Shown here one piece after another: positions 3,340-51,589 of a stretch of DNA of 64,000 bases. Source of the DNA: a virus (lineage: Duplodnaviria > Heunggongvirae > Uroviricota > Caudoviricetes); IMG/VR virus record IMGVR_UViG_2823949316_000001, positions 5,531 to 69,530 of that record. One strand, written 5' to 3'. Every line of letters starts with the position of its first letter. The first letter of the stretch is position 1. The position numbers and the translations under genes are program-made. The notes below the pieces were generated by a model that was given only the letters and a program-made list of their open reading frames with translations, searched no databases and was not told the origin of the DNA.

Positions 3340-3380
3340 AGAATTTCCTCGGTGGGTGGATTTGGTGAGCGAAGTGTAAG

Positions 3381-3497
3381 TGCAAATTTGAGCAACGCGC
3401 AAGCATTTCACCTGCAATTTCACGGCTTTTACTTATGTGTCATAGATTTGCACGCGGAACTATTGTGGTTGATTGCTCAAATACGATAAACTTGAGC
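3381..3497. promoter_or_regulatory. Divergent early control region with operator-like half-palindromes (TGCAAATTTGAGCAA 3381-3395; TTGCTCAAATACGATAAACTTGAGC 3473-3497)
   Basis: 186-bp non-coding gap between the leftward exonuclease operon and the rightward cro-like gene. The sequences are related to the perfect palindromes at 12670, 15686 and 16492. Confidence 0.45.
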
Positions 3498-3525: not shown

Positions 3526-3762
3526 ATGGGCAGCATCAAAGAGATCGACACCAATCAGCGCGCCTTCCTGGGCAAGCTCGACGAGCTTGAGAACCGCGCT
3601 CACGCGGTAGGCCACACGCTGACCAGCATTTGCGAGCTGTCCGGCGTTGCCCGGGCCACCCCTGATCGCTGGCGCAAGAGCACGCCCAACACCATCAAGC
3701 TCGTCGACAAGCTCGAGGCCGTGGTGGTCGAGGCGGAAAAGCAGGCGGCCAAGGCCCAATAG
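3526..3762 (+). CDS. Cro-like small HTH DNA-binding regulator (78 aa)
   Basis: ORF-track protein with putative HTH ...TLTSICELSGVARATPDRWRK... First gene of the rightward replication operon, divergent from the recombination operon. Confidence 0.5.
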   Translation: MGSIKEIDTNQRAFLGKLDELENRAHAVGHTLTSICELSGVARATPDRWRKSTPNTIKLVDKLEAVVVEAEKQAAKAQ

Positions 3763-3811
3763 CAACCCAATCAGCGGGGCCGCGACCTATCGATAAAGCG
3801 CGGCTTACTTA

Positions 3812-5413
3812 ATGAAAATCACTCCTCGCGACTATCAAGAAGCCTTGATGGCCAAGGCACTGGCAGCGTTCCAGTCAGGCAAGAAGCGACCTCTGGTCGT
3901 TGCTGCGACCGGTGCCGGCAAGACCGTGGTGTTCAGCTGCATTGCCCAGCGCGCCAGCGCCAAGGGCAACAAGGTGCTGATCCTGGCGCACCGTGACCAG
4001 CTGATTAAGCAGGCCAGCGGAAAGCTGCGCGACTACGAGGTGCAGCACGGCATCATCATGGCCGGCTTCACGCCGAACCCGAATGCGAAGGTTCAGGTGG
4101 CGTCCGTCCAGACGCTGGTGCGGCGCCTGAAGAAGATGCGCTTCATTCCTGACCTGATCATTATCGACGAGGCGCACCTGTCGGCCGCCAAGTCGTACAT
4201 CGACATCATCAACCACTTCTCGAAGGCTCGTGTGCTCGGATTCACCGGGTCGCCGTGCCGGCTGGATGGCAAGCCCCTGGGCGCCGATTCTGGCGGCATC
4301 TACGACGACCTGATCCAGGCCATCACCATTCGCCAGCTGATCGACCGCGGCTTCCTCGTGCAGCCCAAGGTCTACGGTGCACCCCAGGAGATCGACCTGA
4401 CGGGCATCAAAAAGTCGATGGGCGACTACAACACCGAGCAGCTGGCCGAGGCCGTCGACAAGCCGCGGATCACCGGTGACGCGATCGCCCAGTACAAGAA
4501 GATTTGCCCGGGCGCTCCGGCGGTGGCCTGGTGCGTGACTGTACAGCACGCCCAGCACGTGGCCGACGAGTTCAACGCCGCCGGCATCAAGGCGGTGATG
4601 CTCTGCGGCGAGCACGACACGGCCTACCGCGACGCAGCCCTGCGGGGGCTCGAAACCGGCGAGATCCAGGTCGTCACCTTCGTCGGCATCCTGGTCGAGG
4701 GCGTCGACTGCCCGGCGATCAGCGCCATCATCCTGCTGCGCCCGACGATGTCGCTGTCGAGCTACCTGCAGGTGATCGGCCGCGGCCTGCGCCCATACAC
4801 CAACGCGGCCGGGGTGAAGAAAGAGGTCTGCTACGTCCTCGACCACGCCAGCCTGTGGCGCAAGCACGGCTTCGCCGACGAGGAGCGCGAGTGGGATCTG
4901 AACGGCGAGGTGAAGCTGCCGGGCAAGAAGAAGGATAAGGAGAAGGGTGTCGACCTGATCCAGTGCGGCGGCTGCTTCGCCGTGTTCGAGCCGGCGCCCG
5001 TGTGCCCGAACTGCGGCAAGCCTGTCGAAACCAAGGCCCGCAAACTCGACCAGGTCGACGGCGAGCTCGTCGAGATCACCGCCGAGATGCGCGAGGCGGT
5101 GCGCAAGGACAAGCAGCGCGAAGTCAAGGGCGCCAAGACGCTGGAGGAGCTGCAGCGCATCGCGGCCCAGCGCGGGTACTCACCAGGCTGGGCGAAGGCG
5201 ACCTTCGAGGCCCGCAAGCGCACCCGCGAGAAGTACCGGCCGGCCAGGCCGAAGGAGCCGAGCATGGCGGAGCTGCAGAGCATGACCCTGGAGCAACTGG
5301 AGCGCGTGGCCAACGAGCAAGGCTGGCCTCGCGATTTCCCGAGCGAGTTTTTTTACACCAAAGGCGCCGGTGCCCAACCGGACAATAACCAACAGACCCT
5401 TGGAGGGTTCTAA
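3812..5413 (+). CDS. Superfamily-2 DEAD/DEAH-box DNA helicase with C-terminal CxxC...CxxC zinc ribbon
   Basis: Walker A AATGAGKT, DEAH-like IIIDEAH, motif III TGSP, motif VI QVIGRGLRP. Zinc ribbon CGGCFAVFEPAPVCPNCG. Confidence 0.85.
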   Translation: MKITPRDYQEALMAKALAAFQSGKKRPLVVAATGAGKTVVFSCIAQRASAKGNKVLILAHRDQLIKQASGKLRDYEVQHGIIMAGFTPNPNAKVQVASVQTLVRRLKKMRFIPDLIIIDEAHLSAAKSYIDIINHFSKARVLGFTGSPCRLDGKPLGADSGGIYDDLIQAITIRQLIDRGFLVQPKVYGAPQEIDLTGIKKSMGDYNTEQLAEAVDKPRITGDAIAQYKKICPGAPAVAWCVTVQHAQHVADEFNAAGIKAVMLCGEHDTAYRDAALRGLETGEIQVVTFVGILVEGVDCPAISAIILLRPTMSLSSYLQVIGRGLRPYTNAAGVKKEVCYVLDHASLWRKHGFADEEREWDLNGEVKLPGKKKDKEKGVDLIQCGGCFAVFEPAPVCPNCGKPVETKARKLDQVDGELVEITAEMREAVRKDKQREVKGAKTLEELQRIAAQRGYSPGWAKATFEARKRTREKYRPARPKEPSMAELQSMTLEQLERVANEQGWPRDFPSEFFYTKGAGAQPDNNQQTLGGF

Positions 5414-5416
5414 TCG

Positions 5417-5875
5417 ATGTCGTCTCTCAACCAAGTAAACCTGATCGGCCGCCTGGGGCAGGATCCCGAAGTGAAGTACCTGCCCAATGGCGACGCGGTC
5501 TGCAACCTGAGCCTGGCGACGTCCGAGCGCTGGAAGGACAAGCAGACCCAGGAGCAAAAGGAAAAAACCGAGTGGCATAAGGTGGTGGTGTTCGGCAAGC
5601 TCGCCGAGATCGCCGGCCAGTACCTGCGCAAGGGCGCCCTGGTCTACTTCCAGGGCAAGCTGGAAACTCGCCAGTGGGAGAAGGACGGCGAGAAGCGCTA
5701 CACCACCGAGATCCGTGCGAGCGAGATGAAGATGCTCGGCAACAAGGACGATGCCGGCGGTCGTGATGGCAACAATACCCAACAGCAGCCCCGCCAACAG
5801 ACGCCGCAGCGTACTGCCCCGCAGCAGCCGAAGGGCGGAGCGGCTGACCAATTCGACGATGACGTGCCGTTCTGA
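5417..5875 (+). CDS. ssb: Single-stranded DNA-binding protein
   Basis: OB-fold N-terminus ([21 protein letters not shown]...[12 protein letters not shown]...), Gln/Pro-rich linker, canonical acidic tail DDDVPF. Confidence 0.9.
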
Positions 5876-5896
5876 CACGGCAACATCGACAACAAC

Positions 5897-5920
5897 AAAG
5901 GGGCCTCTGGCCCCTTTCCT
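5897..5920 (+). terminator. Rho-independent terminator after ssb
   Basis: GGGGCC-TCT-GGCCCC stem-loop followed by TTTCCTT. Confidence 0.55.
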
Positions 5921-5936
5921 TCGACCCGAGGGACTT

Positions 5937-6167
5937 ATGAAAGAAAGGATTTTGCAGGCGTACCAGAAGATGCGCGCAGCCGCACGTGGCGCCAAGGGCG
6001 TGGCGCCCGAGCTGACCGACAGTGACCTTGCCGCGGCCGACGTCGCCGCCAAGCATCCCGAGCATGTGCTGCGCCAGGCTGTCGTCATGCGCGCCGCATT
6101 CGAGCGCGAGGCGCTGAAGAACCCGCCGAAGACTGTCGGCCTCGACCTTCCGGTGGTGCCAGCATGA
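5937..6167 (+). CDS. Hypothetical protein (76 aa, MKERILQAYQKMRAAARG...)
   Basis: In-frame ATG inside ORF 5751..6167, after the terminator and with a GGGAC RBS. Stop overlaps the next start (ATGA). Confidence 0.45.
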   Translation: MKERILQAYQKMRAAARGAKGVAPELTDSDLAAADVAAKHPEHVLRQAVVMRAAFEREALKNPPKTVGLDLPVVPA

Positions 6168-6616
6168 GCGATCAAAAACCGACCAACCCCAAGGACATCA
6201 TCGGCAGCACCAAGCTGCCGCTCCACCTCTGGCCAACCACGGCGACCGCCATGGGCTGCATCGGCCTGCTCGAGGGCATGCTGAAGTACGGCCGCCAGAA
6301 CTGGCGCGAGGCAGGCGTGCGCGCGTCGATCTACGTCGATGCCTGCAAGCGCCACCTGGACGCCTGGTTCGAGGGCGAGGAGTGCGCGCCGGACAGCGGC
6401 TCGCCGCACCTGGCCAACGCCATCGCCTGCCTGGCCATCATTATCGACGCCAAGGCTGCCGGCAAGCTGGTGGATGATCGCGCCTACAACGGCGAGGGCT
6501 ATCGCAAGCTCGTCGAGGAGCTGACGCCGCAGGTGGCGCACCTGCAGGAGCTGTTCAAGGACAAGACCCCGCACCACTACACCATCGCCGACAAGGATGC
6601 CGCCAGTGGCCAGTGA
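6164..6616 (+). CDS. Hypothetical phage protein (150 aa); resembles dATP/dGTP diphosphohydrolase N-terminal domain proteins
   Basis: ORF-track protein, ATGA-coupled to the upstream gene. The motif LPLHLWP...KYGRQNWREAG is recalled from phage DUF proteins; the functional assignment is weak. Confidence 0.5.
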   Translation: MSDQKPTNPKDIIGSTKLPLHLWPTTATAMGCIGLLEGMLKYGRQNWREAGVRASIYVDACKRHLDAWFEGEECAPDSGSPHLANAIACLAIIIDAKAAGKLVDDRAYNGEGYRKLVEELTPQVAHLQELFKDKTPHHYTIADKDAASGQ

Positions 6617-7052
6617 AGGTACAACCCAGCGCCAAATCTGGCTCGCCCTGGGTCGAGTGTCCCGCCTGTTCCGGCTCAACACCGGTCGTGGCTGGATCTC
6701 GAACCTTGGGCCGAATGGCGTGACCCGCCTGCAGGACGGCTCGGTGCTGGTGAAGGCTGCGCGATCGATCTCGCTCGGCCTGGCCATGCCGAATGGCGAC
6801 CCGGTGAAGGGCGCATGTGACTTGCCCGGCTGGACGACCGTCGAAGTAACGCCTGAGATGGTTGGCAAGAAGATTGCTGTGTTCACGTCCGTCGAGGCCA
6901 AGGCGTCAAAAGGTGGTCGGGTGTCGCCTGATCAGAAGAACTGGCTCGACCAAGTAAAAGCCGCTGGCGGTATCGCCGGCGTTGCCAACTCGCCAGAATC
7001 CGCACGCGAAATTATTTCCGAGTGGGCTGCGCAGGTCGGTGCAAATTTGTAG
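6597..7052 (+). CDS. VRR-NUC domain nuclease
   Basis: ...QIWLALGRVSRLFRLNTGRGW... followed by D/E/K catalytic residues. Size (about 150 aa) is typical of VRR-NUC. The start is ATG 6597 or in-frame GTG 6606. Confidence 0.6.
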   Translation: MPPVASEGTTQRQIWLALGRVSRLFRLNTGRGWISNLGPNGVTRLQDGSVLVKAARSISLGLAMPNGDPVKGACDLPGWTTVEVTPEMVGKKIAVFTSVEAKASKGGRVSPDQKNWLDQVKAAGGIAGVANSPESAREIISEWAAQVGANL

Positions 7053-7267
7053 TAGCATTGTGACTTGTTGGATCAGCCGGGTGGCAGCCCGGCTAATTAC
7101 AGCTTCATCCCAGATATTCACGGCTTCATTGCTGCGACTCCCGCGGCCATAGGCCACTGTAGGTTAAGGGCTAGACACCGGTTAGCTCCCGGTGTCGAAG
7201 AGCGCTTTCTGCTGAGCGCCTGCCCGCTTTTTATTTACCAGCGGATAGACCCCGGGCAGAGGGACAA

Positions 7268-10150
7268 ATGGCTCAAGTACCAGCATCAACAATAGAAAGG
7301 GCAAAAGCTGACATCGTCGGTACGATTTCCAAGTACCTTGAACTCAAGAAAGTAGGCCAGGAATACGAGGCCTGCTGTCCATTCCATTCCGAGAAGACTC
7401 CGTCTTTCCGTGTCGTACCGGAAAAGCGCTTCTTCTACTGTTTCGGCTGCGGAGCTGGCGGTGATGCCACTGACTTCGTCCAAGACTTCGAAAGCATCGG
7501 CTTTCGTGATGCCATAGCGCGCATTGTTAATGACCAGTCCATTGGTGACGCCGTTCCCAAGGCCCGACAGACGGTCAAAAAAGAGGTCGAGGCCGAGTGG
7601 GAGCCAGTCGTTCCAGTGCCGGCCAATATCAAGCAGCGGCCCATGGATACCTTCAACCGTCGCAAGGGCGGTGAGTGGGAGAGGCTGGTCAGCAGCAAGC
7701 GCTGGGAGTACCGCGACGCCAATGGCGGACTGATCGGCTACATCTGCCGCTTCGAGCTGCCCGGTGGTGGCAAAGACGTCATCCCTCAGACCTACTGCGT
7801 TAACAAGCAGACCGGCGAGATGCGCTGGAAGTGGCTGTCGTTCGCGAAGCCGCGCCCGATCTATGGTCTCGACAAGCTGGCGAAGCATCCGCTCGCCCAG
7901 GTGATCCTCGCTGAGGGCGAGAAGGCGGCAGACGCCGCCCAGGCGCTGTACGAGGCGGCTGGCATCTCGCGTGACAAGCTGGTGGTGGTCTCCTGGCCGG
8001 GCGGCGGCAAGGCCGTGCCTCACGTCGACTGGTCACCCCTGGCGGGCCGCAACGTGGGCCTGTGGCCCGATGCCGACCAGAAGCCTTACGTCGACACGCA
8101 CCCCAAGGCCGGCCAGCTCATGCCCTTCATCGAGCAGCCGGGCGCCGTGTGCATGCTCGACATCGCCGAGCGCATCGAGGGTCAGGTCAACTCCCTGAAA
8201 TTCATCATGCCGCCGGAAGGTGTCGAGGATGGCTGGGATCTGGCCGACGCGCTGCCGGCCGGCTTCAACCTGCTGGCTCACACCCGGGCAGCAGCCATGC
8301 CGATCGCCGACTTCCGTGAGAAGCACGTTCCGGCCGCTGAGCCAGAGCAGATCATGCCCTGGGACGACGAGCCGGACGCTGATGACATCGCGCTGGCCTG
8401 TGGGGTCGATCCTGCGCCGGTCGCCGAGCAGCAGGCCCAGGCCCCAGCACCAGCCGCCCCGCAGCCGAAGCCGGCGCCGGGTGATGACTGGGAAGACCCG
8501 CTGATCAAGAACGGGCACTTCACCATCCTGGGCTACGACCGCGGCAAGTATTACTTCTTCGTCCACGAGAAGCGTCAGGTCATGGCCTACCAGAAGGGCG
8601 ACTTCAGCGACGCGGGCATGCTCGAGCTGGCTGAGATCAACTGGTGGGAGGAGCACTTCCCGGGCGAGCGGGGCAGCATGAACAAGAAGATGGCCCTGAA
8701 CTGGATCTTCCGCACCGCCAACCGCCGCGGCGTCTACGACCCGGAGCGCGTGCGCGGCCGCGGCGCCTGGACGGACAACAAGCGGGCCGTGTTCCACCAT
8801 GGCGGCCATCTCACCGTCGACGGCGTCTACACCGACATCACGGCCATGCGCTCTGCCTACGTCTACCAGGTCGAGCGGAGCATCCCGGCTCCAGCCGTCG
8901 AGCCCATGACCGACGAGGAGGGTTCCTGGCTGGTCAGCGTCGCCGAGATGGCCCGCTGGAGCATGGCCGGCAGTGCTGCCCTGCTCGCTGGCTTCGTCAT
9001 GCTCGCGCCGATCTGTGGCGCGCTGCCGTGGCGCTCGCACATCTGGCTGACCGGCGGCGCCGGGTCGGGCAAGTCCACCCTGCAGAGCAAATACGCGGCC
9101 TCGCTGCTGCGCGGCGTGTCGGTGTACGCCACCGGCGACAGTACCGAGCCCGGCATCCGCCAGAGCCTGCAAGCTGACTCCCTGCCGGTGCTGATCGACG
9201 AGATCGAGTCGAACAACGACAACGACAAGCGCCGCGTCGAGAACATCATCGGCATGATCCGCAAGACCTCGACCGAGAGCCAGGCCCAGACGCTGAAAGG
9301 CACTGTGTCCGGAGACGGCCAGAGCTTCCACGTCCGCTCCATGTTCTGCCTGGCGTCGATCAACGTGAACATGCCCAGCAAGGCCGACACCGACCGCCTG
9401 ACCAAGCTGGTGCTGCGCCCGCCGATCGCCGACAGCCGCGACCACTGGGACAAGCTCGAGGCCGAGCTGAACAAGATCGAGGAAGACGAGGACATTTCAA
9501 GCCGCCTGCTGGCGCGCGCCCTGGGCATGATGCCGGTCATCCTGGAGACCGTGAAGGTGTTCCGCCGGGCTGCCGCCAAGCACTTCGGCACCCAGCGCCA
9601 GGGCGACCAGTTCGGCACCCTGCTCGCCGGCTCCTGGTGCTTGCAGAAGAGTACCGTGCCTTCCGAGGAGGAGGCCATGGTGCTGATCCGCGGCTACAAC
9701 TGGAATGAGCACGTCGAGGACAACGACCAGGACGACGCGGCCCGCGCTGTCGAGGCCCTGCTGGGCGCCAAGCTGCGCGCCAAGAGCCTCGGCGGTAGCA
9801 CCGACGAGTACAGCGTCTACGAGCTGATCCGCGAGTGCTCTCCGATGCACCGCCACAACGTCATTGATGTCGGGGTCGCAGACGCGACCCTGAAGCGCCA
9901 CGGCATCCGCGTCGAGCACGCCACCGGCGAGCTGTGGTTCGGTACCAGCGTGACCAACCTGGTGCAGATGGCCAGCGGCATGTCCTTCGTCACCGACCTG
10001 CGCGGCCAGCTGCTCAGGGTCAAGGGCGCCAAGCGCATCAGCGGCAGCAAGAAGTTCAACGGCTCGGACAGCAAGGTGGTGAGCATCCCGCTGGATCCGA
10101 TCCTGGGCGATGAGAAGGAGGCGGGCAGCAGCGACGATCTGCCGATCTAG
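7268..10150 (+). CDS. Phage DNA primase (CHC2 zinc finger, DnaG-like) fused to a P-loop NTPase (helicase/origin-binding-like) domain, 960 aa
   Basis: N-terminal CCPFHSEKTPSFRV...FYCFGCGAGGD zinc finger. Central acidic, Pro-rich linker. C-terminal Walker A LTGGAGSGKST and Walker B VLIDEIE. Confidence 0.85.
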   Translation: MAQVPASTIERAKADIVGTISKYLELKKVGQEYEACCPFHSEKTPSFRVVPEKRFFYCFGCGAGGDATDFVQDFESIGFRDAIARIVNDQSIGDAVPKARQTVKKEVEAEWEPVVPVPANIKQRPMDTFNRRKGGEWERLVSSKRWEYRDANGGLIGYICRFELPGGGKDVIPQTYCVNKQTGEMRWKWLSFAKPRPIYGLDKLAKHPLAQVILAEGEKAADAAQALYEAAGISRDKLVVVSWPGGGKAVPHVDWSPLAGRNVGLWPDADQKPYVDTHPKAGQLMPFIEQPGAVCMLDIAERIEGQVNSLKFIMPPEGVEDGWDLADALPAGFNLLAHTRAAAMPIADFREKHVPAAEPEQIMPWDDEPDADDIALACGVDPAPVAEQQAQAPAPAAPQPKPAPGDDWEDPLIKNGHFTILGYDRGKYYFFVHEKRQVMAYQKGDFSDAGMLELAEINWWEEHFPGERGSMNKKMALNWIFRTANRRGVYDPERVRGRGAWTDNKRAVFHHGGHLTVDGVYTDITAMRSAYVYQVERSIPAPAVEPMTDEEGSWLVSVAEMARWSMAGSAALLAGFVMLAPICGALPWRSHIWLTGGAGSGKSTLQSKYAASLLRGVSVYATGDSTEPGIRQSLQADSLPVLIDEIESNNDNDKRRVENIIGMIRKTSTESQAQTLKGTVSGDGQSFHVRSMFCLASINVNMPSKADTDRLTKLVLRPPIADSRDHWDKLEAELNKIEEDEDISSRLLARALGMMPVILETVKVFRRAAAKHFGTQRQGDQFGTLLAGSWCLQKSTVPSEEEAMVLIRGYNWNEHVEDNDQDDAARAVEALLGAKLRAKSLGGSTDEYSVYELIRECSPMHRHNVIDVGVADATLKRHGIRVEHATGELWFGTSVTNLVQMASGMSFVTDLRGQLLRVKGAKRISGSKKFNGSDSKVVSIPLDPILGDEKEAGSSDDLPI

Positions 10151-10164
10151 AGATCAGGGGTAGA

Positions 10165-10192
10165 GAAAAGCCGGCGCTAAGCCGGCTTTTTC
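10165..10192 (+). terminator. Rho-independent terminator after primase gene (A-run on the 5' side as well, so possibly bidirectional)
   Basis: AAAAGCCGGC-GCTAA-GCCGGCTTTTTC. Confidence 0.6.
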
Positions 10193-10355
10193 TTGCCCCG
10201 CAACATCCCAAAGTCTGCCCATAGATCCTCGCTCGCGCCGCAGTCGCAGCATTCCCTGATTCTCCGGCTGTGGTAGTAGATCCAAGCGTGTTTGCCGCGG
10301 CAGGCAGGCCCTGTCGGCCGCCAATCCCAGACGTCTTTCATCGTTGCTCCAGGTA

Positions 10356-10378
10356 TAAAAAAGCCGCCTTTCGGCGGC
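10356..10378 (-). terminator. Rho-independent terminator ending the leftward 12629->10393 operon
   Basis: On the minus strand: CAGCCGCC-GAAA-GGCGGCTTTTTT. Confidence 0.55.
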
Positions 10379-10392
10379 TGTGGTTGGTGGGA

Positions 10393-10614
10393 CTATTGTG
10401 CCCGATTTCGCGGTGGCGGCATACCCAGTCGGATGGCCAGGTCATCGCAGACCCGGGCGACCCGCTCCCGCATTGCGCGGGCCTCGGCGTCGCGCTGGGC
10501 GGCCGCGGCTCGCCAGTCGAAGGTGGATGCCGCCGCCGGCGCCTGACGCAGCGTGTCACCGGCCCGCGCCTGGGCGCTGTCGGCGTAGAGGTCGAGCTGG
10601 TCAGTCACTGGCAT
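10393..10614 (-). CDS. Hypothetical small protein (73 aa, MPVTDQLDLYADSAQARAG...)
   Basis: Its ATG overlaps the upstream stop within CCATGCCAGTGA. It is the in-frame 3' part of ORF 10393..10779. Confidence 0.4.
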   Translation of the reverse strand: MPVTDQLDLYADSAQARAGDTLRQAPAAASTFDWRAAAAQRDAEARAMRERVARVCDDLAIRLGMPPPRNRAQ

Positions 10615-10772
10615 GGCTCCTTGGCGATGACGGCAATGGCCTGCAGCAGGCGGAGTTTCGCCGCCAGCGTCTCCTGCTTGCGAGTCGAGCGCTGAGCTTT
10701 TGGGCAGCGGTACTCCATGCGCACCGCGCGCTCCAGGCCGTCGACCAGGCCGCGCAGGCGGGGAGGGGTCAT
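10605..10772 (-). CDS. Hypothetical small protein (55 aa, MTPPRLRGLVDGLERAVRMEY...)
   Basis: ATGA overlap with the stop of the upstream 159-aa gene, and its stop overlaps the downstream start. Too short to appear in the ORF track. Confidence 0.35.
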   Translation of the reverse strand: MTPPRLRGLVDGLERAVRMEYRCPKAQRSTRKQETLAAKLRLLQAIAVIAKEPCQ

Positions 10773-11248
10773 GCGGCACCTTCCTGCTGGGCGCGGTGGG
10801 CGGCGAGGGCTGCGCGCGCTACGTTGCCGTAATTTCCTCGGCTGGTAGACTCGTAGAACTCCAGCGCAGAAACCAGCCCGCTCATGTCCTGCGCTGCTGG
10901 CTGCTCACCGCTTACAGGGTGCGGGGCGGCGGCGAGCAATCTCTCAAGCACGCTACTCAGGTAGGAAGATGACGCCGCTATGTCCTCCATGTAGCCAAGC
11001 GCACTGCGCCCCGCCTCGTAATCGACAGCGGCCTTATCAACCAGGCGGTACACCTTCCTAGCTGCGTGCAGCATAGTGGTCAGCTCAAGCCGACTTGGAT
11101 TGCTCGACGCCTCCCCGCCTGCCGGCAACTGGGCGCGGGCTTGCCAGATACGCCATGCAACTTCTCGGACAGTTGTGCTCTGGCTACCGCAAGCTGTTTC
11201 GTATGCCGCCTCGAACAGCGCGCGCTCTTGATCGTTGTGGTTACTCAT
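10769..11248 (-). CDS. Hypothetical protein (159 aa, MSNHNDQERALFEAAYETACGS...)
   Basis: In-frame ATG within ORF 10769..11533. Start/stop overlap ATGAGTAA with the upstream Cys-rich gene. Confidence 0.5.
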   Translation of the reverse strand: MSNHNDQERALFEAAYETACGSQSTTVREVAWRIWQARAQLPAGGEASSNPSRLELTTMLHAARKVYRLVDKAAVDYEAGRSALGYMEDIAASSSYLSSVLERLLAAAPHPVSGEQPAAQDMSGLVSALEFYESTSRGNYGNVARAALAAHRAQQEGAA

Positions 11249-12302
11249 GGCGCTGGGCCTCGGTAGGATAGGCCCACGGCCCGGTGTAGTCGCTGAAGTG
11301 GGTGCAGCACTCACGGCGGAAGCAGCGCGTCTTGCAGTCGTGGTGGCATGTGCCGCCGTCAATGCAGCGCTCACCAAGCACCTCCCCATCGCCGACGTTG
11401 GTGGGCTCTGCGCTGGCGGATAGCAGATAATCCGTCTTGCGCCGCAGGTTGTTGATGGCAGGTGATGACTTGCCAAGGTCGGTGTCCAGCCAGTCACGCA
11501 ATATAGCGAACGCCGCATCGCGCTTTCGCTCAATGCCGTTTAGCTCTACGAGCGAATTACGCAGATCGGCCGCATGACGCTCAGCCGCATCGGCGCGCTG
11601 GATTGCGGCTTCGAGTTGACCTTCAAGTTCAGCGGCCTTTTTGAGCACTTTCAGACAGTTGCTGGCCCACCTTTCTTTGTCGGCCAGCAGCCGCTCCCCC
11701 TCGGACGGGTCGGCGTGGGTGAAGAGCGGCCCCAGCTTGGCTATCTCGTCAAGACATTGATTCCAAGTACCATGCCCGTGCTCAGCTATCTCTTGAGTGT
11801 CTTTGCGTTTTGGCAGCGTCACCGGCTGCTGCTCGGACAACGGCTCCCCGTCTTTCAAGCGTTCAATCTCCGGCTCTGTCAACCCTTTGGTGCCACGCCC
11901 AGGAAAACCGCAGTCACGGTTGGGGCAGTAGATGGTACATACGCCGGTAACGCACAATTTCGTACCGCAAAGGCGGCAGAATGTGCCGCCTTTTACCCAC
12001 GCCACCGGCTCCTGCTCAGGCGCGGCGCCAACCTGCTTACATGAGCATGGCAAGCGCCCTTGGTTGCAATCACACGTTTTTGCTTGCTCCGGCGCGGCGC
12101 TGGCCTGGGCCTGCTTCACCTGGTGCAGCTCCTCAGCCAGACGAGCGTTGCGGCCAGCCATGTCGACCGCGGCCCACTCCATGCCGGCGAGGATGGTCTG
12201 CTGCAGCCGGGCGGTGGCCTGGGCGCTAGGTCGGCCAGGATCTTGGGCCAAGCCCTGCGCCAGCTCGAAGGCCTTCAAATCCATTTCAGCGCGCGTGTTC
12301 AT
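11241..12302 (-). CDS. Cys-rich (putative metal-binding) protein, 353 aa, with coiled-coil middle region
   Basis: In-frame ATG (MNTRAEMDLKAFELAQ...) within ORF 11241..12383. Three Cys clusters: CDCNQGRLPCSCKQ, CRLCGTKLCVTGVCTIYCPNRDCGF, CIDGGTCHHDCKTRCFRRECCTHF. The start overlaps the stop of the 37-aa gene (ATGA). Confidence 0.6.
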   Translation of the reverse strand: MNTRAEMDLKAFELAQGLAQDPGRPSAQATARLQQTILAGMEWAAVDMAGRNARLAEELHQVKQAQASAAPEQAKTCDCNQGRLPCSCKQVGAAPEQEPVAWVKGGTFCRLCGTKLCVTGVCTIYCPNRDCGFPGRGTKGLTEPEIERLKDGEPLSEQQPVTLPKRKDTQEIAEHGHGTWNQCLDEIAKLGPLFTHADPSEGERLLADKERWASNCLKVLKKAAELEGQLEAAIQRADAAERHAADLRNSLVELNGIERKRDAAFAILRDWLDTDLGKSSPAINNLRRKTDYLLSASAEPTNVGDGEVLGERCIDGGTCHHDCKTRCFRRECCTHFSDYTGPWAYPTEAQRHE

Positions 12303-12412
12303 GCCAGCCACCCCGCGACGTCCAGCAGGTTGACGGTGATCACCGCCGCAAGGCTGACGGCCATGAAGGTGATGATCTTCCACTTTGCGATTTGCGTCTC
12401 TGCGTTGCGCAT
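12299..12412 (-). CDS. Small hydrophobic protein (37 aa, MRNAETQIAKWKIITFMAVSLAAVITVNLLDVAGWLA)
   Basis: RBS GGAAAGGAAG immediately 5' of the ATG. One predicted TM helix. Coupled to the downstream Cys-rich gene. Confidence 0.4.
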   Translation of the reverse strand: MRNAETQIAKWKIITFMAVSLAAVITVNLLDVAGWLA

Positions 12413-12422
12413 CTTCCTTTCC

Positions 12423-12629
12423 TCACTGAGCGTGTTGTTGAGCGCACCGGTCGACGGTGCGCGTGAAGGTCTTGAGGTCTTTCCCGACGCCGTGCTGAGT
12501 GTACGGCGCCGGGCAATTGTGAGGGGGCTCCGCCATCGGTACCGGGCCGGCGATGATCGGGGCGAGTAATGCCCAGGTCAGCCAGGTGGTACATATGGCC
12601 ATGACATGGCCGGCGATGAGTTTCGGCAT
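12423..12629 (-). CDS. Small membrane protein (68 aa, MPKLIAGHVMAICTTWLTWALLAPIIAGPVPM...)
   Basis: In-frame ATG in ORF 12423..12860 with an AAGGGGCAACG RBS. N-terminal TM helix. First gene downstream of the operator/promoter at 12670. Confidence 0.45.
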   Translation of the reverse strand: MPKLIAGHVMAICTTWLTWALLAPIIAGPVPMAEPPHNCPAPYTQHGVGKDLKTFTRTVDRCAQQHAQ

Positions 12630-12668
12630 TGCGTTGCCCCTTGTATTTGTTGGGGCAATACTACGCCA

Positions 12669-12685
12669 TTGCTCAAATTTGAGCA
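12669..12685. promoter_or_regulatory. Perfect 16-bp palindromic operator TGCTCAAATTTGAGCA with minus-strand -10-like TAGTAT 5 bp downstream
   Basis: Lies between the end of a 62-aa gene and the start of the leftward operon at 12629. Same family as the sites at 15686 and 16492. Confidence 0.6.
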
Positions 12686-12709
12686 CGAGAACGCTTAGAA
12701 TGTTTTCTT

Positions 12710-12898
12710 CTATGCGTTGCTGTGAGCTGCGGTAAAAGTATTGATCTCGTTCGCCAGCTTCTGCGCACCGATGGTCGGATGGCGGCTGACGATGATCTTG
12801 GCCTGGCGCAGGAGGCGCATGGCTTCGTCGGTGTCGAAGGGAGCAGACGCACCAGCGCACTGGGCTTCGATGCGGCGTTGAGCAGCTGACTTGTCCAT
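12710..12898 (-). CDS. Hypothetical small protein (62 aa, MDKSAAQRRIEAQCAGASAPFDTDEAMRLLRQAK...)
   Basis: In-frame ATG in ORF 12710..13117. Weak call. Confidence 0.3.
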   Translation of the reverse strand: MDKSAAQRRIEAQCAGASAPFDTDEAMRLLRQAKIIVSRHPTIGAQKLANEINTFTAAHSNA

Positions 12899-12947
12899 GG
12901 CGGGAACTCGGCAGGAGGTGGGCTCACTGCCGAGTTTGGTGTCACGA

Positions 12948-14036
12948 TCAGTCGGGGCGCTTGCCCAGGGCGACGATCTGGTTCGGGGCCTTGGCCCAGC
13001 CCTGCAGCTCGGCGCGAGTGAATTTCCCGGCGTCCATCTGCTCGGCGGCGTACCCACTGAAGCCTGCGCAGTGATAGAGCTTGTGCTCGGTATGCCATAG
13101 GCAGAACACCGGCTCACCTGGCGGCCAGATCAGGTCGCGCAGCACCTCGGCGCGGCGGTAGTCCATTCGCGCCACGGCGGCGTTCAGCTCGCTCTCCAGG
13201 CGCTTGCGACGCAGAGACTTGTTGCGCTTGCAGCGCAGGTCGCCTGGGTTGTCGACATAAAGCTCGAAGCTGGCTTCGTTGGTGACAGCATACTTGCCGC
13301 TGACCACCCACCACATGTTGTTGATGTTGTAGTGGGCGATGCCGGTCTGCGCGCGACCCTTCCGGTCGAAGAAGTAGACGGGCTGGCCATGCTCGAGCAG
13401 CTTGCCATCGGCTGACTTGCGGTTGCTGTTGAAGCAGCTGGAGAGGCCAGGGCTGCTATTGGCGTCGCGGTAGGCCTGCCAGTCTCCCTTGAAGTGCCAG
13501 CTCTCGGAATAGCAGCCATTCAGGTATTCCATAGCCGTTGGCGGCTTGAGTCCGCGCCGCCGTGAACCTCGTCCAGGGCTCTGCTCTTCGAAGGTATAGC
13601 CGATGAACACGTTACAGAGGTAATCGCGGATCCGGCGCCGGGTTCGCTCCATCTCCAGGCGCAGAAGGTAAGGTGCGACGGCTTCTTTGTTCGACTCGTA
13701 GCGGCCCTTGTGATCTGGCCTGGTCGGGGTATTAGCCGACTGCCACATTTCCAGCCTGATGCAGCGCCCACTGAGATCCAGCAGGGCGTGCAGGTGTTCA
13801 CCCTTGCTGCATGTGCGATGGTTGTTGGCGATGATTTTATATTGATCAGCTTCATCCCACGGGCCGACAGTCCAGCCGATGCGGTTCAGTTGCTGGATGA
13901 TCCGAGCGAAAACTTCCCGCTTGAACTTCTTCCCCCAAGCGGTGCGCTCTTCCCAGCTCCCGCCCAGGCCTTCCTCCGAGATATACAGGGCGGCATCGCC
14001 GAAGCGGACAGTGCCCTGTCGATTGATTTGTGGCAT
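12948..14036 (-). CDS. Hypothetical protein (362 aa)
   Basis: ORF-track protein with balanced composition. Its start is preceded by TAAGGAAAGGAAATG and an upstream GCGCCCC-AGC-GGGGCGC hairpin. Confidence 0.7.
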   Translation of the reverse strand: MPQINRQGTVRFGDAALYISEEGLGGSWEERTAWGKKFKREVFARIIQQLNRIGWTVGPWDEADQYKIIANNHRTCSKGEHLHALLDLSGRCIRLEMWQSANTPTRPDHKGRYESNKEAVAPYLLRLEMERTRRRIRDYLCNVFIGYTFEEQSPGRGSRRRGLKPPTAMEYLNGCYSESWHFKGDWQAYRDANSSPGLSSCFNSNRKSADGKLLEHGQPVYFFDRKGRAQTGIAHYNINNMWWVVSGKYAVTNEASFELYVDNPGDLRCKRNKSLRRKRLESELNAAVARMDYRRAEVLRDLIWPPGEPVFCLWHTEHKLYHCAGFSGYAAEQMDAGKFTRAELQGWAKAPNQIVALGKRPD

Positions 14037-15460: not shown

Positions 15461-15634
15461 TTACTCAGCGAGCATGTAACCTTCGCCGTCAACAACAAAG
15501 CGGCTTCCATCCTTGAGCAGATAGATGCGGCTGCCGTCTTCAGCATCGATAATTTGATTGCTGAGCATGCGCGCCTGAATACGTGCACCAGTAACGCTTT
15601 TTGCGGTCTCGAGGATGTCTTGTGCGTCGGTCAT
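15461..15634 (-). CDS. Hypothetical small protein (57 aa, MTDAQDILETAKSVTGARIQARMLSNQIIDAEDG...)
   Basis: In-frame ATG with strong CTGGAGGGCAAGACG RBS. First gene downstream of the promoter/operator at 15686. Confidence 0.45.
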   Translation of the reverse strand: MTDAQDILETAKSVTGARIQARMLSNQIIDAEDGSRIYLLKDGSRFVVDGEGYMLAE

Positions 15635-15685
15635 CGTCTTGCCCTCCAGGGCGTTGTTCGTTTCGATGGGGCAATTATGCTTGAG

Positions 15686-15703
15686 TTGATCAAATTTGAT
15701 CAA
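15686..15703. promoter_or_regulatory. Perfect 18-bp palindrome TTGATCAAATTTGATCAA overlapping a leftward sigma70-like promoter (-35 TTGATC, 18-nt spacer, -10 CATAAT)
   Basis: Read on the minus strand: TTGATCAAATTTGATCAACTCAAGCATAAT, then a GGAGGG RBS and the start of the gene at 15634. Confidence 0.65.
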
Positions 15704-15826
15704 GCAACGCATTAGATCAGTTTGGCATAAGAGCGTGCGAATACTGGCTTGCCATCATCAGCGGGCGGGTAGCCATCCCGGCCCGGACAACCCCAGCTCG
15801 GTGCAAGCCTGGGGCGGTTTCGGCGG

Positions 15827-16491: not shown

Positions 16492-16513
16492 TTGCTCAAA
16501 TTTGATCAAGCAA
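16492..16513. promoter_or_regulatory. Palindromic operator TTGCTCAAATTTGATCAAGCAA overlapping a leftward promoter (-35 TTGATC, 18-nt spacer, -10 CACAAT)
   Basis: Same family as the sites at 12670 and 15686. Lies in the 117-bp gap between the Rha-like gene and the 95-aa gene. Confidence 0.6.
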
Positions 16514-17269: not shown

Positions 17270-17740
17270 CCAGAAAGCAGGGGCGACCGACCGCAAAAAC
17301 TGCGGAAACTGCTTTTTCGCCTGTATTTGCTGGCTGTTTGATCGAGGGGCGACCGACAAATGCAGTCTGGTCGCTCTTTTGGTCGCGCCCAGTGCCGCGA
17401 CTAATGCCCAAAAGGCGACCGGGCCGCGTCTCCCGTTTCTGCCAATGAATACAGGGCATTTGGCGGGGAGCGTCCAAAGCGACCGCTCCAGCCGGAAAAA
17501 GGTATAAGTAGGAATATACGGTTGTGCTGGTTGTGAATTGATAACACAACTATCACAACCAAGTTTAAGTCCTATAGGGGGCTTATATATATGGTTTCTT
17601 GGTTTCTCTTATTATTATTATTTAAATAAGTTATTGTTTTTATTATTATTATAGGGCCTTTTATGGGGCAACCAGAGGGGCAACCAAGGAGCAACCAGCA
17701 GCAGCGACCGGTCGCCCTAGTGACCGTCCGTCAACTTCTC
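17270..17740. repeat. Iteron-rich, AT-rich island (candidate replication origin / regulatory hub)
   Basis: At least 7 copies of GCGACC(G/A) in both orientations (17283, 17345, 17367-17390, 17412, 17479, 17708). About 100 bp of very AT-rich DNA (17560-17660) carries two (TTA)3-4 runs in a 63% GC genome. Three direct GGGCAACCA-like repeats at 17665-17700. TTGTG...CACAA dyad at 17531-17560. Confidence 0.5.
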
Positions 17741-17820
17741 GCAAATTACTCGGAATTATTTACCACCAGGCCAAGTCACCTGTAGAATTGCCCGCAGCAC
17801 TTACCGCTGGGGCAGCAGCA

Positions 17821-22066: not shown

Positions 22067-22309
22067 ATGGGCAAGACCGTAGAGCAGCGCGTCATCGAGA
22101 TCGTCGAGCAGCAGCTGGGCCTGGGCGGCAATGAGCCAGTGACCGCCGAGCAGCACATCCTGAACGACCTGGGCGGCGATAGCCTCGACTTCATCGAGAT
22201 TGTCATGGCCATCGAGGAGGAGTTCGAGATCGAGATCAGTGACGACGCCGCCGAAGGTGCGCAGACCGTTCAAGAAGCCATCGATCTGGTCAAGCGCCTG
22301 GTCGACTGA
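22067..22309 (+). CDS. Acyl carrier protein-like (80 aa; DSL phosphopantetheine-attachment motif LGGDSLDFIE)
   Basis: Acidic 4-helix-sized protein with Ser in the DSL motif. Preceded by motif copy 2 and a strong RBS, followed by a GGCGCC-TGCG-GGCGCC hairpin. Confidence 0.7.
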   Translation: MGKTVEQRVIEIVEQQLGLGGNEPVTAEQHILNDLGGDSLDFIEIVMAIEEEFEIEISDDAAEGAQTVQEAIDLVKRLVD

Positions 22310-48985: not shown

Positions 48986-51589
48986 ATGAGCGAAGTCAAA
49001 ATCCGCCTCCCGGCGCCCCATCCTGTCCAAAAGAAAATCCTCAGTCGCCCGACCCGCTTCAATGCCATCTGCATGGGCGAGAAGGGCGGCAAGACCACGC
49101 TCGGCATCGAGGTGCTGATCATGTCAGCCCGCGGCGCATTGGCCGGCAATGCGCCGGTAGCCTGGTTCGCCGCCACCAAGGAAGAGCTCGTCGAGGTCAA
49201 GCGCATCGTCCGGCGCGCCATCGACCAGGTCATCAAGCGGCAGCCCAACGCGCGCCGCATCGAGCTCGCCAACGGCAACGCCATCGACTTCTACTCGCTC
49301 GACGAGATGCCTAAGAGTTTCCCGCAGTACGGCCTGATCGTGGTCGACGACGTGTGCCAGGTGCCCCTGTTCCTCGATACCTGGGAGGACGTGCTGAGCG
49401 AGTGCCTGCGCGAGCACCAGGGCGAGGGCTGGTTCCTGTCGAACGCCTACGGCAAGCGCAACGACTTCTACCGCCTGTACCAGATCGGCAACCTGGATCC
49501 GGACTGGTCTTGCTGGCAGTTCCCGTCCGACTGCAACCCGTTCCTGCCCGAAGACGCGAAGGCCGAAATGGCCGAGGTCACCGAGCTCGAGCTGCGGCAG
49601 CGGTTCGGCGCCGAGTTTCTGGATGTCGCCGTCGAGCTGACGGCTGCGCAGCGCGTGCTGAAGCAGGGCGAGACCTTCATCCAGTGGTGCGAGCGCCTGG
49701 AGCAGGATGGCCTGAAGGTGGACGGCGTCCCGTTCACGCTGTCCGACCGCCCCGCCATGCGCTTCATCTACGAGCTGATCCCGTCCACCAGGGAGGAGGC
49801 CTTCGAGCGCGTCGACGTGATCATGAAGTGCACCCAGGTGGGATTCACGGTGATGGAGATGCTGGCGGCCATCTACCTGGCCCTGCGGTTCGCCCCGGCC
49901 AAGATCGGCATGTTCATGCCGTCGACGTCCCTGGCGTCGGGCAAGTCCTCTGAGCGCTTCCTGCCGATCGCGCGCACCGTGCCGGCCGTGCACCGCCTGA
50001 TGACCGAGAAGAACGCCTCTGGCGGCCGCGGTGGCGAGGGTAACGTTCTGATCAGGAACCTGGGGCCGTCGCGCTTCCACTTCCTCTGGACGTCCGGCGC
50101 GACCGCGACCGAGTCGTTCCCGATGGACGTCATCTCCTTCGACGAGGTGCAGGAGATGCTGATCGCCGACATGGAGAAGGTGGTCGAGCGTCTGTCGGCG
50201 TCCAAGCTGAAATACACCCTCATGGGCAGCACGGCCAACTGGCCAGACAGCGACATCCACTGGTGGTACCAGCGCGGCACCCAGCACCAGTTCCACACCG
50301 AGTGCCCGCACTGCGGCCTGGGCCAGGTGCTCGACGAGCACTTCCCGGAGTGCATCCAGTTCGACCCGCAGCACCCGAAGCGCAAGCAGCGCGGCGACAC
50401 CATCCTGCTCGGCGAGTACCGCTACCAGTGCCACTCGTGCAAGGGCTGGATCGACGACCCGCAGCAGGGCGAGTGGATCGCCAAGAACCCGGCGGCCGAC
50501 ATCCGGTCGGTGCACTTCCCGCAGTTCCTGTCGCCGACGATCAGCCCGCGCAACATCATCGAGGCGTTCCGCAACAACGACAGCATGAAGGGCTTCTACA
50601 ACCGGAAGCTGGGCAAGCCGTACACCGACCCGTCGCAGGTGCCGGTGAACCTGGAGATGCTGAACCAGTGCGCCGCGGAAGGCATGCGCCGGGGCGTGGT
50701 CTGGAAGGATCGGGCGCGCAACACCTTCATGGGCATCGACCAGATGGGCGCCTACAACGTGGCGATCATCAAAGAGCGCATGGACAGCGGTCACCAGGCC
50801 GTGATCCACCTCGAGTACATCTTCGACGCAGACCCGTTCATGCGCTGCAGCAAGCTCATGGAGCTCTACGGCGTGCAGTGCTGCGTGGTCGAGACGCTGC
50901 CTAACTACAACGATGCGAAGCGCTTCGCCCAGCGCCACTCCGGCAAGGTGTTCCTGGCCGGCTACGGCAACATGGACAATGAGATGCTGATCTGGGGCGA
51001 CACCCCGAAAAGCAACTCATCCGATCGCCGCACGGACGAAGAAGCGCTCGACCGCTACACGGTTCGCCTCGACCAGTACAAGTGCATGCAGGTTTCGATG
51101 GCCCGCTTTGCGACGCAGAGCTGCCTGTTCCCGGATCCTACCGCGCTGGTGCAGATGTATGCCGAGAAGGGCGAGAAGGCGCTGACGCCGGTCTGCAAGG
51201 ACGTGGCATTCTTCCACTTCACGCGCACGGCGCTGGTGGTCGAGAAGGACGAGGACGAGAAGAAGTACAAGCGCAAGGTGGTCAAGGTCGGCATCGACCC
51301 GCACACCAGCTATGCCAACATGCTCTGCGACGTGGCCTGGTCGCGCGCGCACGGCACGAGCACGTTCATCCTGCCGAGCGGCGGCACCGATCACCAGAAG
51401 GCCCTGGAGCCCGGGCAGATCGATATTCCTGACCAGATCGCGGCAGTGATGTCTCAGCTGCAGATTTCGAGGGACGAGGTGTGCGGGAACTGCGTCAACC
51501 GCGACGAGGAGACCGGCCTGTGCTCTGAGCAGCGGGTGCTCACCGCGAAGGCCGATCCTGGGTGCTGGGCGTTCATTGCCAAAGGCTGA
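48986..51589 (+). CDS. Putative terminase large subunit (GpA-like: N-terminal ATPase, internal zinc ribbon, C-terminal nuclease), 867 aa
   Basis: Walker A-like MGEKGGKTT. Acidic Walker-B-like IVVDDV and ISFDEVQEM. CPHCG...CHSCKG zinc ribbon. The portal gene follows after an inserted leftward cluster. No small-subunit gene was identified directly upstream. Confidence 0.55.
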   Translation: MSEVKIRLPAPHPVQKKILSRPTRFNAICMGEKGGKTTLGIEVLIMSARGALAGNAPVAWFAATKEELVEVKRIVRRAIDQVIKRQPNARRIELANGNAIDFYSLDEMPKSFPQYGLIVVDDVCQVPLFLDTWEDVLSECLREHQGEGWFLSNAYGKRNDFYRLYQIGNLDPDWSCWQFPSDCNPFLPEDAKAEMAEVTELELRQRFGAEFLDVAVELTAAQRVLKQGETFIQWCERLEQDGLKVDGVPFTLSDRPAMRFIYELIPSTREEAFERVDVIMKCTQVGFTVMEMLAAIYLALRFAPAKIGMFMPSTSLASGKSSERFLPIARTVPAVHRLMTEKNASGGRGGEGNVLIRNLGPSRFHFLWTSGATATESFPMDVISFDEVQEMLIADMEKVVERLSASKLKYTLMGSTANWPDSDIHWWYQRGTQHQFHTECPHCGLGQVLDEHFPECIQFDPQHPKRKQRGDTILLGEYRYQCHSCKGWIDDPQQGEWIAKNPAADIRSVHFPQFLSPTISPRNIIEAFRNNDSMKGFYNRKLGKPYTDPSQVPVNLEMLNQCAAEGMRRGVVWKDRARNTFMGIDQMGAYNVAIIKERMDSGHQAVIHLEYIFDADPFMRCSKLMELYGVQCCVVETLPNYNDAKRFAQRHSGKVFLAGYGNMDNEMLIWGDTPKSNSSDRRTDEEALDRYTVRLDQYKCMQVSMARFATQSCLFPDPTALVQMYAEKGEKALTPVCKDVAFFHFTRTALVVEKDEDEKKYKRKVVKVGIDPHTSYANMLCDVAWSRAHGTSTFILPSGGTDHQKALEPGQIDIPDQIAAVMSQLQISRDEVCGNCVNRDEETGLCSEQRVLTAKADPGCWAFIAKG

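Follow-up and report, generated by a model that had tools for sequence, protein, structure and literature searches.

A putative early accessory gene cluster with a mosaic Cys-rich coiled-coil protein in a phage or prophage of Microvirga lupini

Introduction

The exo-xis region of phage lambda comprises early-transcribed, non-essential small proteins, some of them Cys-rich, the function of which is mostly unassigned; Ea22 is tetrameric, and its coiled-coil domain is preceded by a short N-terminal domain and followed by a globular C-terminal one (PMC10834534, PMC7093339, PMC8614690). Small early phage proteins of the "monkey-wrench" type have also been discussed, and the early block of phage PAK_P3 was assigned to gp74-gp112 (PMC4933390). 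In this study, we analyzed a cluster of six genes, g1 to g6, on the minus strand (12629 to 10393) of a 64,000-nucleotide stretch of Caudoviricetes DNA, in the following referred to as the window (positions 5,531 to 69,530 of the IMG/VR record IMGVR_UViG_2823949316_000001). The lambda exo-xis region appears to be the nearest analogue of this cluster, as does Ea22 of its largest product, g3 (353 amino acids, aa), in layout only and not by membership of the Ead/Ea22-like family PF13935.

Both Ea22 and g3 show an N-terminal domain, a central coiled coil (aa 168-297 in g3) and an end domain, and both are located in early regions. Furthermore, Ead_Ea22 proteins are encoded a few genes away from homologues of g3 or of its C-terminal module A in one related contig (L002) and in PAK_P3. 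However, neither g3 nor g4 matched any Pfam family at E <= 1, PF13935 and PF14354 (Lar) included. While the C-terminal domain of Ea22 is mixed alpha-beta, the end domains of g3 are Cys/His mini-domains, and while Ea22 stems from a lambdoid phage, g3 stems from a PHB04-like phage of ~93 kb.

A second group of elements suited for comparison are the morons described for HK97 and HK022, which are insertions equipped with a promoter and a terminator of their own; a classic moron is defined by being expressed while the prophage is repressed. The cluster is similarly a discrete unit with a promoter-like element, a strong terminator and a slot differing between related phages, but its promoter carries the phage's own early operator and its GC content is not deviant. 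Judged from the sequence, expression of the cluster from a repressed prophage looks unlikely, and moron-type expression is disfavoured because the operator is common to the replication promoter. Overall, g1-g6 resemble ordinary, unannotated accessory genes of phage early regions more than they resemble a defence system. With a probability of about 0.5, we consider it a lineage-specific accessory sub-operon in which g3 would be a zinc-binding oligomeric adaptor acting early in lytic growth.

Results and discussion

Six translationally coupled genes at the distal end of a leftward array

Translation of the minus strand from 12629 to 10393 gave six open reading frames (ORFs):

g1, 12423..12629, minus strand: 68 aa; N-terminal hydrophobic segment and two C-terminal Cys
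g2, 12299..12412, minus strand: 37 aa; one hydrophobic segment of transmembrane type
g3, 11241..12302, minus strand: 353 aa; mosaic Cys-rich coiled-coil protein
g4, 10769..11248, minus strand: 159 aa; mosaic protein, long start
g5, 10605..10772, minus strand: 55 aa; basic (12 K+R versus 5 D+E)
g6, 10393..10614, minus strand: 73 aa

The coordinates equal those of an earlier model-based reading of the same DNA (the first-pass annotation), which had proposed six overlapping or abutting genes, and the junctions, the ribosome-binding-site-like sequences and the coding-type base composition agree with this proposal. At the g1/g2 junction, TGA is followed by the 10-nucleotide spacer GGAAAGGAAG and ATG; g2/g3 and g4/g5 both overlap in ATGA, g3/g4 are joined in ATGAGTAA, and g5/g6 overlap by 10 nucleotides in ATGCCAGTGA. 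A purine-rich, Shine-Dalgarno-like sequence precedes each of the six starts. The GC content at third codon positions (GC3) ranges between 0.67 and 0.84 in g1-g6, compared to 0.42-0.58 at second positions (GC2) and an overall GC content of 63% in the window, and is highest in g2 (0.84) and g5. For g4, the public gene call starts at 11074 (101 aa) versus 11248 in the first-pass annotation; the long start is considered correct because homologues begin with MTKHNDQERALFEA and MTNHNDQER.

The six genes had been described as an operon of their own. Translational overlaps and a terminator at its end are indeed present, but g1-g6 represent only the distal end of ~15 same-strand genes reaching from 17179 to 10393. 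In the interval from the stop of the upstream 62-aa gene (12710) to g1, a scan revealed no terminator-like site, so that the array continues upstream without an intervening site of this kind; we therefore refer to g1-g6 as a sub-operon. A foreign origin was considered on the basis of GC content and dropped, as the cluster (59-67%) matches its surroundings.

The prediction of two tiny membrane proteins was upheld by Kyte-Doolittle analysis, with 15-residue maxima of 2.52 for g2, a clear segment, and 1.73 for g1, a moderate and N-terminal one.

A mosaic of Cys/His mini-domains around a coiled coil

The g3 protein contains 18 Cys and 9 His, with three clusters at aa 76-88, 108-130 and 313-333. 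In the AlphaFold2 model, long helices span aa 168-297 between the second and third cluster at a predicted local distance difference test score (pLDDT) of ~80, matching the initial description of three Cys/His clusters around a coiled coil in a 353-aa protein; for aa 1-69, a helical hairpin is confidently predicted (pLDDT 74-92). A library search with g3 resulted in 305 matches, among which g3 itself was the only full-length one. Because all other matches were partial and the homologue coverage changes in sharp steps, we regard g3 as a mosaic:

aa 1-45: coverage 0, unique N-terminus
aa 75-100: coverage ~14, CDCNQGRLPCSCK plus linker
aa 102-150: coverage ~8, module C
aa 155-158: coverage rises from 16 to 59, begin of module B and the coiled coil
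aa 305-307: coverage rises from 47 to 78, begin of module A
aa 347-349: coverage drops off, end of module A

The corresponding modules are located as follows:

12039..12077, minus strand: mini-module CDCNQGRLPCSCK, aa 76-88, with a direct repeat of the AAPEQ linker on both sides (12084-12101 and 11997-12029)
11898..11993, minus strand: module C, aa 104-135, GGTFCRLCGTKLCVTGVCTIYCPNRDCG, six Cys
11553..11840, minus strand: module B, aa 155-250, WNxCLDEIAKLGPLFTHADPxExERL followed by the coiled coil
11256..11390, minus strand: module A, aa 305-349, LGExCIDGGxCHHxCxxxCFRRxCCxxFSDYxGPWxY

In the alignment of g3 homologues, the mini-module CDCNQGRLPCSCK is present in P0004, missing in P0002, P0016 and P0017, and N-terminal in P0003, P0013, P0019 and P0020. 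Module C was found in ~8 homologues with all six Cys retained, and it matches the functionally unannotated profile phrog_7233 weakly but in Cys register (aa 106-128, E = 1.2e-4). Two homologues, one of them P0005, carry module C as a fusion with a Lar_restr_allev domain (PF14354). Like the modules described here, Lar is a small Cys-based domain of phage early arrays near recombination genes, whereas g3 itself lies outside the Lar family.

Module A is the best-conserved module of the protein. It matches phrog_13737, also without annotated function (aa 303-335, E = 1.4e-12), and was detected in 70 of 153 g3 homologues, at any position and in proteins of 65-641 aa. Across 65 relatives, C313, D315, G316, G317, C319, H321, C323, C327 and W343 are invariant; the conserved residues of ligand type comprise five Cys and two His (C313, C319, H320/H321, C323, C327, C333). 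Within the full-length AlphaFold2 model, the module reaches a pLDDT of ~90. In PAK_P3 (gp137, 76 aa), KPP10 and ~40 other lytic Pseudomonas myoviruses, module A constitutes a stand-alone protein of ~76 aa, while in g3 it forms the C-terminal end of a four-module fusion. These proteins share ~50% identity with module A and are annotated as hypothetical; PAK_P3 gp137 closes a unit ending at an RNA-Seq-annotated terminator and is numbered outside the early block gp74-gp112. Among species-representative bacterial genomes, a genome scan revealed module A at only four loci.

As g3 has neither a signal peptide nor a hydrophobic N-terminus, it is probably cytoplasmic, and we therefore infer that the conserved Cys/His clusters bind metal, most likely zinc. 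Searches of PDB sequences with g3 and the module A profile gave nothing significant, and no solved zinc domain was matched. The remote-homology check suggested earlier, using Foldseek with the full AlphaFold2 model of g3 against the PDB, likewise returned coiled-coil noise only (E > 2). For module A, no relative was found in the PDB. Thus, g3 combines three separately mobile Cys/His mini-domains in a single protein, one of which (module A) is common to temperate-type contigs and lytic Pseudomonas phages and has no solved relative.

Homologues of g3 were invariably encoded in phage arrays made up of tiny ORFs, where genes for RecT/YqaJ, Ead_Ea22, NinX or primase are among the neighbours; small membrane proteins and small CxxC proteins are further members of these arrays. 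The combination of membrane peptides and a metal-binding protein, initially regarded as unusual, was also seen in the early arrays of all related contigs examined and is for this reason typical rather than exceptional. As a whole, g1-g6 form an ordinary kind of phage early accessory cluster, of which the Cys-rich, multi-module g3 is the notable part. Genes of g3 type and g4 type are also adjacent or close to each other in four further contigs (L002, L004, L005, L009). A fixed small membrane partner of g3-type genes was also considered; this idea was dropped, as positions vary and the candidates show no homology to g1 or g2.

The remaining proteins and searches against known families

The g4 protein is a mosaic as well: conserved parts, namely the N-terminus MSNHNDQERALFEA, a WQARAQLP segment, the linker LAAAPHPVSGEQ (10901-10936) and the C-terminus ALEFYESTS...HRAQ, surround a swapped middle. 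For g6, a homologue of 61% identity occupies the syntenic position in contig L005, and a weak match to phrog_16764 was obtained (E = 0.0037). Scans of IMG/VR confirmed no close relatives of g4 and g6, and tblastn against GenBank phages revealed none of g5 and g6. Among g1, g2 and g5, the search was widest for g1, which matched only itself in 5.8 billion protein clusters and gave nothing significant in tblastn against GenBank phages; none of the three has a homologue in any locus fetched.

Searches of all six proteins against Pfam and NCBIfam gave nothing significant. Structural, replication or lysis homology, which would have spoken for known structural or housekeeping phage proteins, was looked for in Pfam, PHROGs and NCBIfam and was absent for g1-g6. 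The only annotated PHROG match of the cluster concerned a head scaffolding family (E = 0.038 over 28 residues), and no stretch of it passed. The family searches also found no enzymatic homology, as anticipated by the first-pass annotation. The defence check it had proposed came out negative, since no family of PADLOC-DB v2 matched any of the six proteins at E <= 1.

A variable slot in a PHB04-like genome

The proteins g3 and g1 are identical to the Microvirga lupini proteins FHR70_000665 (a hypothetical protein) and FHR70_000667, respectively. The region is part of a 92.6-kb contig in an independent (Logan) assembly and of a 1.44-Mb contig in the NCBI assembly. The leftward array containing g1-g6 converges on a rightward replication operon (~3526-10150) encoding a helicase, SSB, a dGTP_diPhyd_N protein, a VRR_NUC protein and a 960-aa primase. 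Upstream of g1-g6, a 362-aa gene was assigned to phrog_7674 (E = 1.8e-126), with homologues in phages of Bordetella, Cronobacter, Vibrio and Sinorhizobium.

The same convergent layout of the 362-aa gene and the helicase-SSB-dGTPase_N-VRR_NUC-primase operon was found in the 94-kb Bordetella phage PHB04, in which positions 62948-77979 of the record (L136) correspond to positions 3848-14036 of the window and the dGTPase_N protein is 72% identical. Between these anchors, PHB04 harbours a 73-aa gene, a metallophosphoesterase and a 108-aa gene, and no homologue of g1-g6 was detected in this phage. Because PHB04 keeps the anchors and carries other genes between them, we consider the cluster lineage-specific cargo in a variable slot. 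A megablast of the region against GenBank phages resulted in no match.

Promoter-operator units, a leader hairpin and a terminator

Four regulatory features frame the cluster or recur along the early regions:

12649..12690, minus strand: promoter-like element with the perfect 14-bp palindrome GCTCAAATTTGAGC (12671-12684) and a -10-like TAGTAT (12658-12663)
12671-12684, 15688-15701 and 16494-16507, minus strand, and 3380-3393, plus strand: promoter-operator copies, each facing its downstream genes
12625..12667, minus strand: g1 leader hairpin, an inverted repeat pairing the Shine-Dalgarno sequence and AUG of g1
10356..10379, minus strand: intrinsic terminator with a 7-bp stem (6 G-C pairs), a GAAA loop and a T6 tail

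Allowing up to three mismatches, the palindrome GCTCAAATTTGAGC occurs 10 times in the window compared to 2.5 expected matches, and none of 100 shuffles reached 10. Four paralogous promoter-plus-operator units could be aligned (consensus cTTGATCAAATTTGAGCAAC-N6-CAtAAT); the copy at 3380 heads the replication operon, and the other three are located inside the leftward early array. Since the operator is common to the replication-operon promoter, g1-g6 are probably co-regulated with lytic early genes. The operator-controlled promoter proposed near 12670 thus gains support from a palindrome unit with four-fold paralogy, but it was not called in a sigma-70 consensus scan, which scored the copy at 15703..15674 as sigma-70-like. 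Measured by the definition of a moron, the cluster has a clear terminator and a promoter supported by paralogy and not by the consensus scan.

Read-through into g1-g6 from upstream is likely, because no terminator-like site precedes g1. The leader RNA of g1 folds at -21.6 kcal/mol (z = -4.35), and none of 200 shuffles was equally stable. The 5' arm of this hairpin overlaps the -10-like TAGTAT, so that transcripts starting at the local promoter would lack the arm and could be translated, in contrast to those reading through from upstream. A comparable case would be IS10, in which read-through transcripts are subject to fold-back inhibition. The leaders of the other three promoter copies showed no significant hairpin of this kind (z between -0.4 and -0.7).

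The terminator, annotated earlier at 10356-10378, was confirmed at 10379-10356 by its stem-loop and T-run, with a fold of -14.7 kcal/mol (z = -3.8). Just past it, in the gap before the primase stop, an uncalled ORF of 54 aa (10177-10341, minus strand; MKDVWDWRPTGPACRGKHAWIYYHSRRIRECCDCG...) shows a GGAG ribosome-binding site, a GC3 of 0.75 and four Cys; an NCBIfam search of this ORF gave no match.

Two further observations concern the surroundings of the promoter copy at 15688. The public call of an 83-aa gene on the minus strand starts at 15712, inside the promoter-operator copy, and the ATG at 15634, preceded by GGAGGGCAAG, suits the promoter layout better as its start. Upstream of this copy and directly past the stop of an 86-aa gene, a sub-threshold Rfam match to the type II hammerhead ribozyme was obtained (15743-15825, minus strand; 25.9 bits versus a gathering threshold of 37, E = 0.069 in an 8-kb search). 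The candidate contains the core motifs CUGAUGA, GAAA and GUC and two good stems, but it could be a chance match in sequence of 70% GC.

Conserved linkers between modules

Comparison of the cluster with related contigs by blastn revealed only short matches of 22-114 nucleotides with 94-100% identity, located at the joints between modules. Within runs of identical amino acids, a tally by hand counted identical codons at ~207 of 224 positions (~92%) in the joints compared to ~72 of 100 in module interiors. The linkers, as compared across L002, L004, L005, L009, L010 and L013-L131, include AAPEQEPVAW, LSASAEP, LAAAPHPVSGEQ and PLYTxPPxRxWxGLTDEE.

The exact DNA of PEQEPVA was found in at least 119 IMG/VR contigs, almost always in frame and in small ORFs. 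These ORFs follow a common layout, in which a helical N-terminal domain ending in ...ITALRxALAQ is followed by PEQEPVAW, 30-50 variable residues, PLYTxPPxRxWxGLTDEE and a variable C-terminal domain. Pfam recognised two of the 106 linker-bearing ORFs, and PHROGs matched them only with families without annotated function. Taken alone, the DNA identity of PEQEPVA is unremarkable, because its codons are the common high-GC ones. A stronger case is the linker LAAAPHPVSGEQ, whose codons CCT-GTA-AGC-GGT, unexpected choices in a high-GC genome, are kept in five contigs; yet this linker was found in only two IMG/VR contigs. The linker and Cys motifs were also looked up in the literature, with no relevant result. 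Pfam domains fused to the 150 g3 homologues and the 106 linker-bearing ORFs were Lar (2, both among the 150 homologues) and one each of DUF3850, dGTP_diPhyd_N, DUF1192, Metal_resist, WDGH and YfiO, and PF13935 was detected in none of the 150 homologues at E <= 0.001.

Short conserved sequences reportedly flank interchangeable phage modules (Susskind and Botstein; lambdoid boundary sequences), and in the classic form of this model the conserved joints lie between genes or functional modules. The g3/g4 joints resemble them in being 94-100% DNA-identical between otherwise unrelated contigs, but they lie within coding sequence and join mini-domains of 15-50 aa in one protein. It is a tentative possibility that g3 and g4 arose by a process of combinatorial domain shuffling that is frequent in the early regions of phages. 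In this view, mini-domains of 15-50 aa, Cys-rich in several cases, are joined by short conserved linkers whose near-identical DNA could act as a crossover point for homologous recombination, and multi-headed proteins for host interaction would be newly assembled all the time. The AAPEQ direct repeat around CDCNQGRLPCSCK would be the footprint of one insertion, and module A would represent a new zinc-binding fold directed against a host target common across Proteobacteria. This linker signature, as read from the sequences, is interesting but unproven. If true, module exchange guided by linkers would explain the rapid diversification of phage accessory proteins and give a handle for cataloguing mini-domains.

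Functional readings of the cluster

According to the favoured reading, the sub-operon ends the leftward early array of a PHB04-like Microvirga lupini phage or prophage of ~93 kb, in a variable slot between the phrog_7674 gene and the convergent primase operon. Here, g3 and g4 represent a type of phage early-region protein that is widespread yet unannotated and is composed of short, independently mobile mini-domains joined by conserved Pro/Ala/Glu-rich linkers. The Cys/His clusters of g3 are predicted to bind zinc and its coiled coil would oligomerise the protein, resulting in a multivalent adaptor for host or phage macromolecules, while g1 and g2 would insert in the membrane. Expression would occur together with the other early lytic genes, from the local promoter with its replication-type operator and from upstream read-through, and the role would be host modulation early in lytic growth (takeover, anti-defence or envelope modification) rather than protection of the lysogen.

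Several points weigh against this reading. With no function assigned to any of the six proteins (0/6), the role is deduced from context alone, and g1, g2 and g5 are linked to g3, g4 and g6 by translational coupling alone. Metal binding by g3 is a prediction; the middle Cys modules are modelled at a pLDDT below 50, and module A modelled alone reaches just 68. The sigma-70 consensus scan found no promoter near 12670, where the -35 is poor, and the factor acting at the palindrome could be an activator. Finally, a PHB04-like phage may not follow the assumed lambda-type logic of early and late expression.

The first-pass annotation had placed the cluster where prophages keep superinfection-exclusion, defence or lysogenic-conversion cargo. 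In such a reading, g1 and g2 would act at the membrane and g3 would be a sensor or effector. The variable slot between conserved anchors, the promoter-like element and terminator, the small membrane proteins and a 1.44-Mb contig consistent with integration all suit cargo expressed in the lysogen, and the slot, the promoter-like element and the terminator stand as proposed. We nevertheless consider this function unlikely. None of the six proteins had a PADLOC match, module A is present in lytic Pseudomonas phages, for which there is no lysogen to be protected, and the homologues are found in lytic early arrays. Expression in a lysogen is further disfavoured because the g1 operator is that of the replication operon and two other early promoters, so that these would be repressed jointly, and read-through transcripts would have the Shine-Dalgarno sequence and AUG of g1 locked in the -21.6 kcal/mol hairpin. 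The cluster therefore does not hold up as a defence candidate and deserves no priority on that ground. A more specific role of g3, and perhaps g4, in anti-restriction or anti-defence, with zinc modules inhibiting host nucleases as proposed for Lar of the Rac prophage, appears improbable as well. The fusions of module C to PF14354, the three DNA methyltransferases of the phage and the early-array position by recombination genes, near which lar is likewise located in the Rac prophage, are in line with such a role, but g3 itself shows no Lar match at E <= 1, Lar accompanies just 2 of 150 homologues, and with DUF3850 and dGTP_diPhyd_N among the fusion partners the signal is unspecific.

Quite unlikely, in our view, is an accessory function in replication, recombination or transcription of the phage, for instance with g3 as a DNA/RNA-binding zinc protein or middle-gene regulator. 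This would fit the convergence on the primase operon under the same operator, the conserved basic and aromatic patch of module A (CFRR...GPWxY) and the numbering of gp137 outside the PAK_P3 early block (PMC4933390). However, no nucleic-acid-binding family and no fold was matched, and the cluster is dispensable for the replication machinery, because PHB04 runs the same module without a homologue of g1-g6. There is, lastly, only a slim chance that the cluster is partly evolutionary debris, in which recombination by-products, mostly g1, g2, g5 and aa 1-45 of g3, are open by chance and serve no selected function. High-GC genomes contain many long spurious ORFs, 5.8 billion clusters held no homologue of g1, the fetched loci none of g2 and g5, GenBank phages none of g5, and the homologue coverage of aa 1-45 is zero. 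Against chance ORFs speak a GC3 well over GC2 throughout g1-g6, with the top values in g2 and g5, the Shine-Dalgarno-like sequence and precise start/stop overlap of every gene, and the confidently modelled hairpin of g3 (aa 1-69, pLDDT 74-92).

Further features of the window

Outside the cluster, the window encodes typical phage genes and three DNA methyltransferases:

48986-51589: large terminase, phage gene
59962-61470: major head protein, phage gene
23877-25694, 29573-30787 and 44597-46246, plus strand: three DNA methyltransferases, including a fusion with a ParB-like nuclease domain

The three DNA methyltransferase genes suggest a heavy investment of this phage in restriction evasion. Positions 17400-17800, which separate the leftward array from the rightward genes that begin at 17821, are AT-rich (46% GC compared to 63% in the window) and contain AATAATAATAA runs; this segment is probably the main divergent control region, as promoter-like sites are present on both strands. 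Among small phage ORFs at ~22067-22302 (plus strand), the product of one small gene matches PF00550, the phosphopantetheine-binding family of acyl-carrier type.

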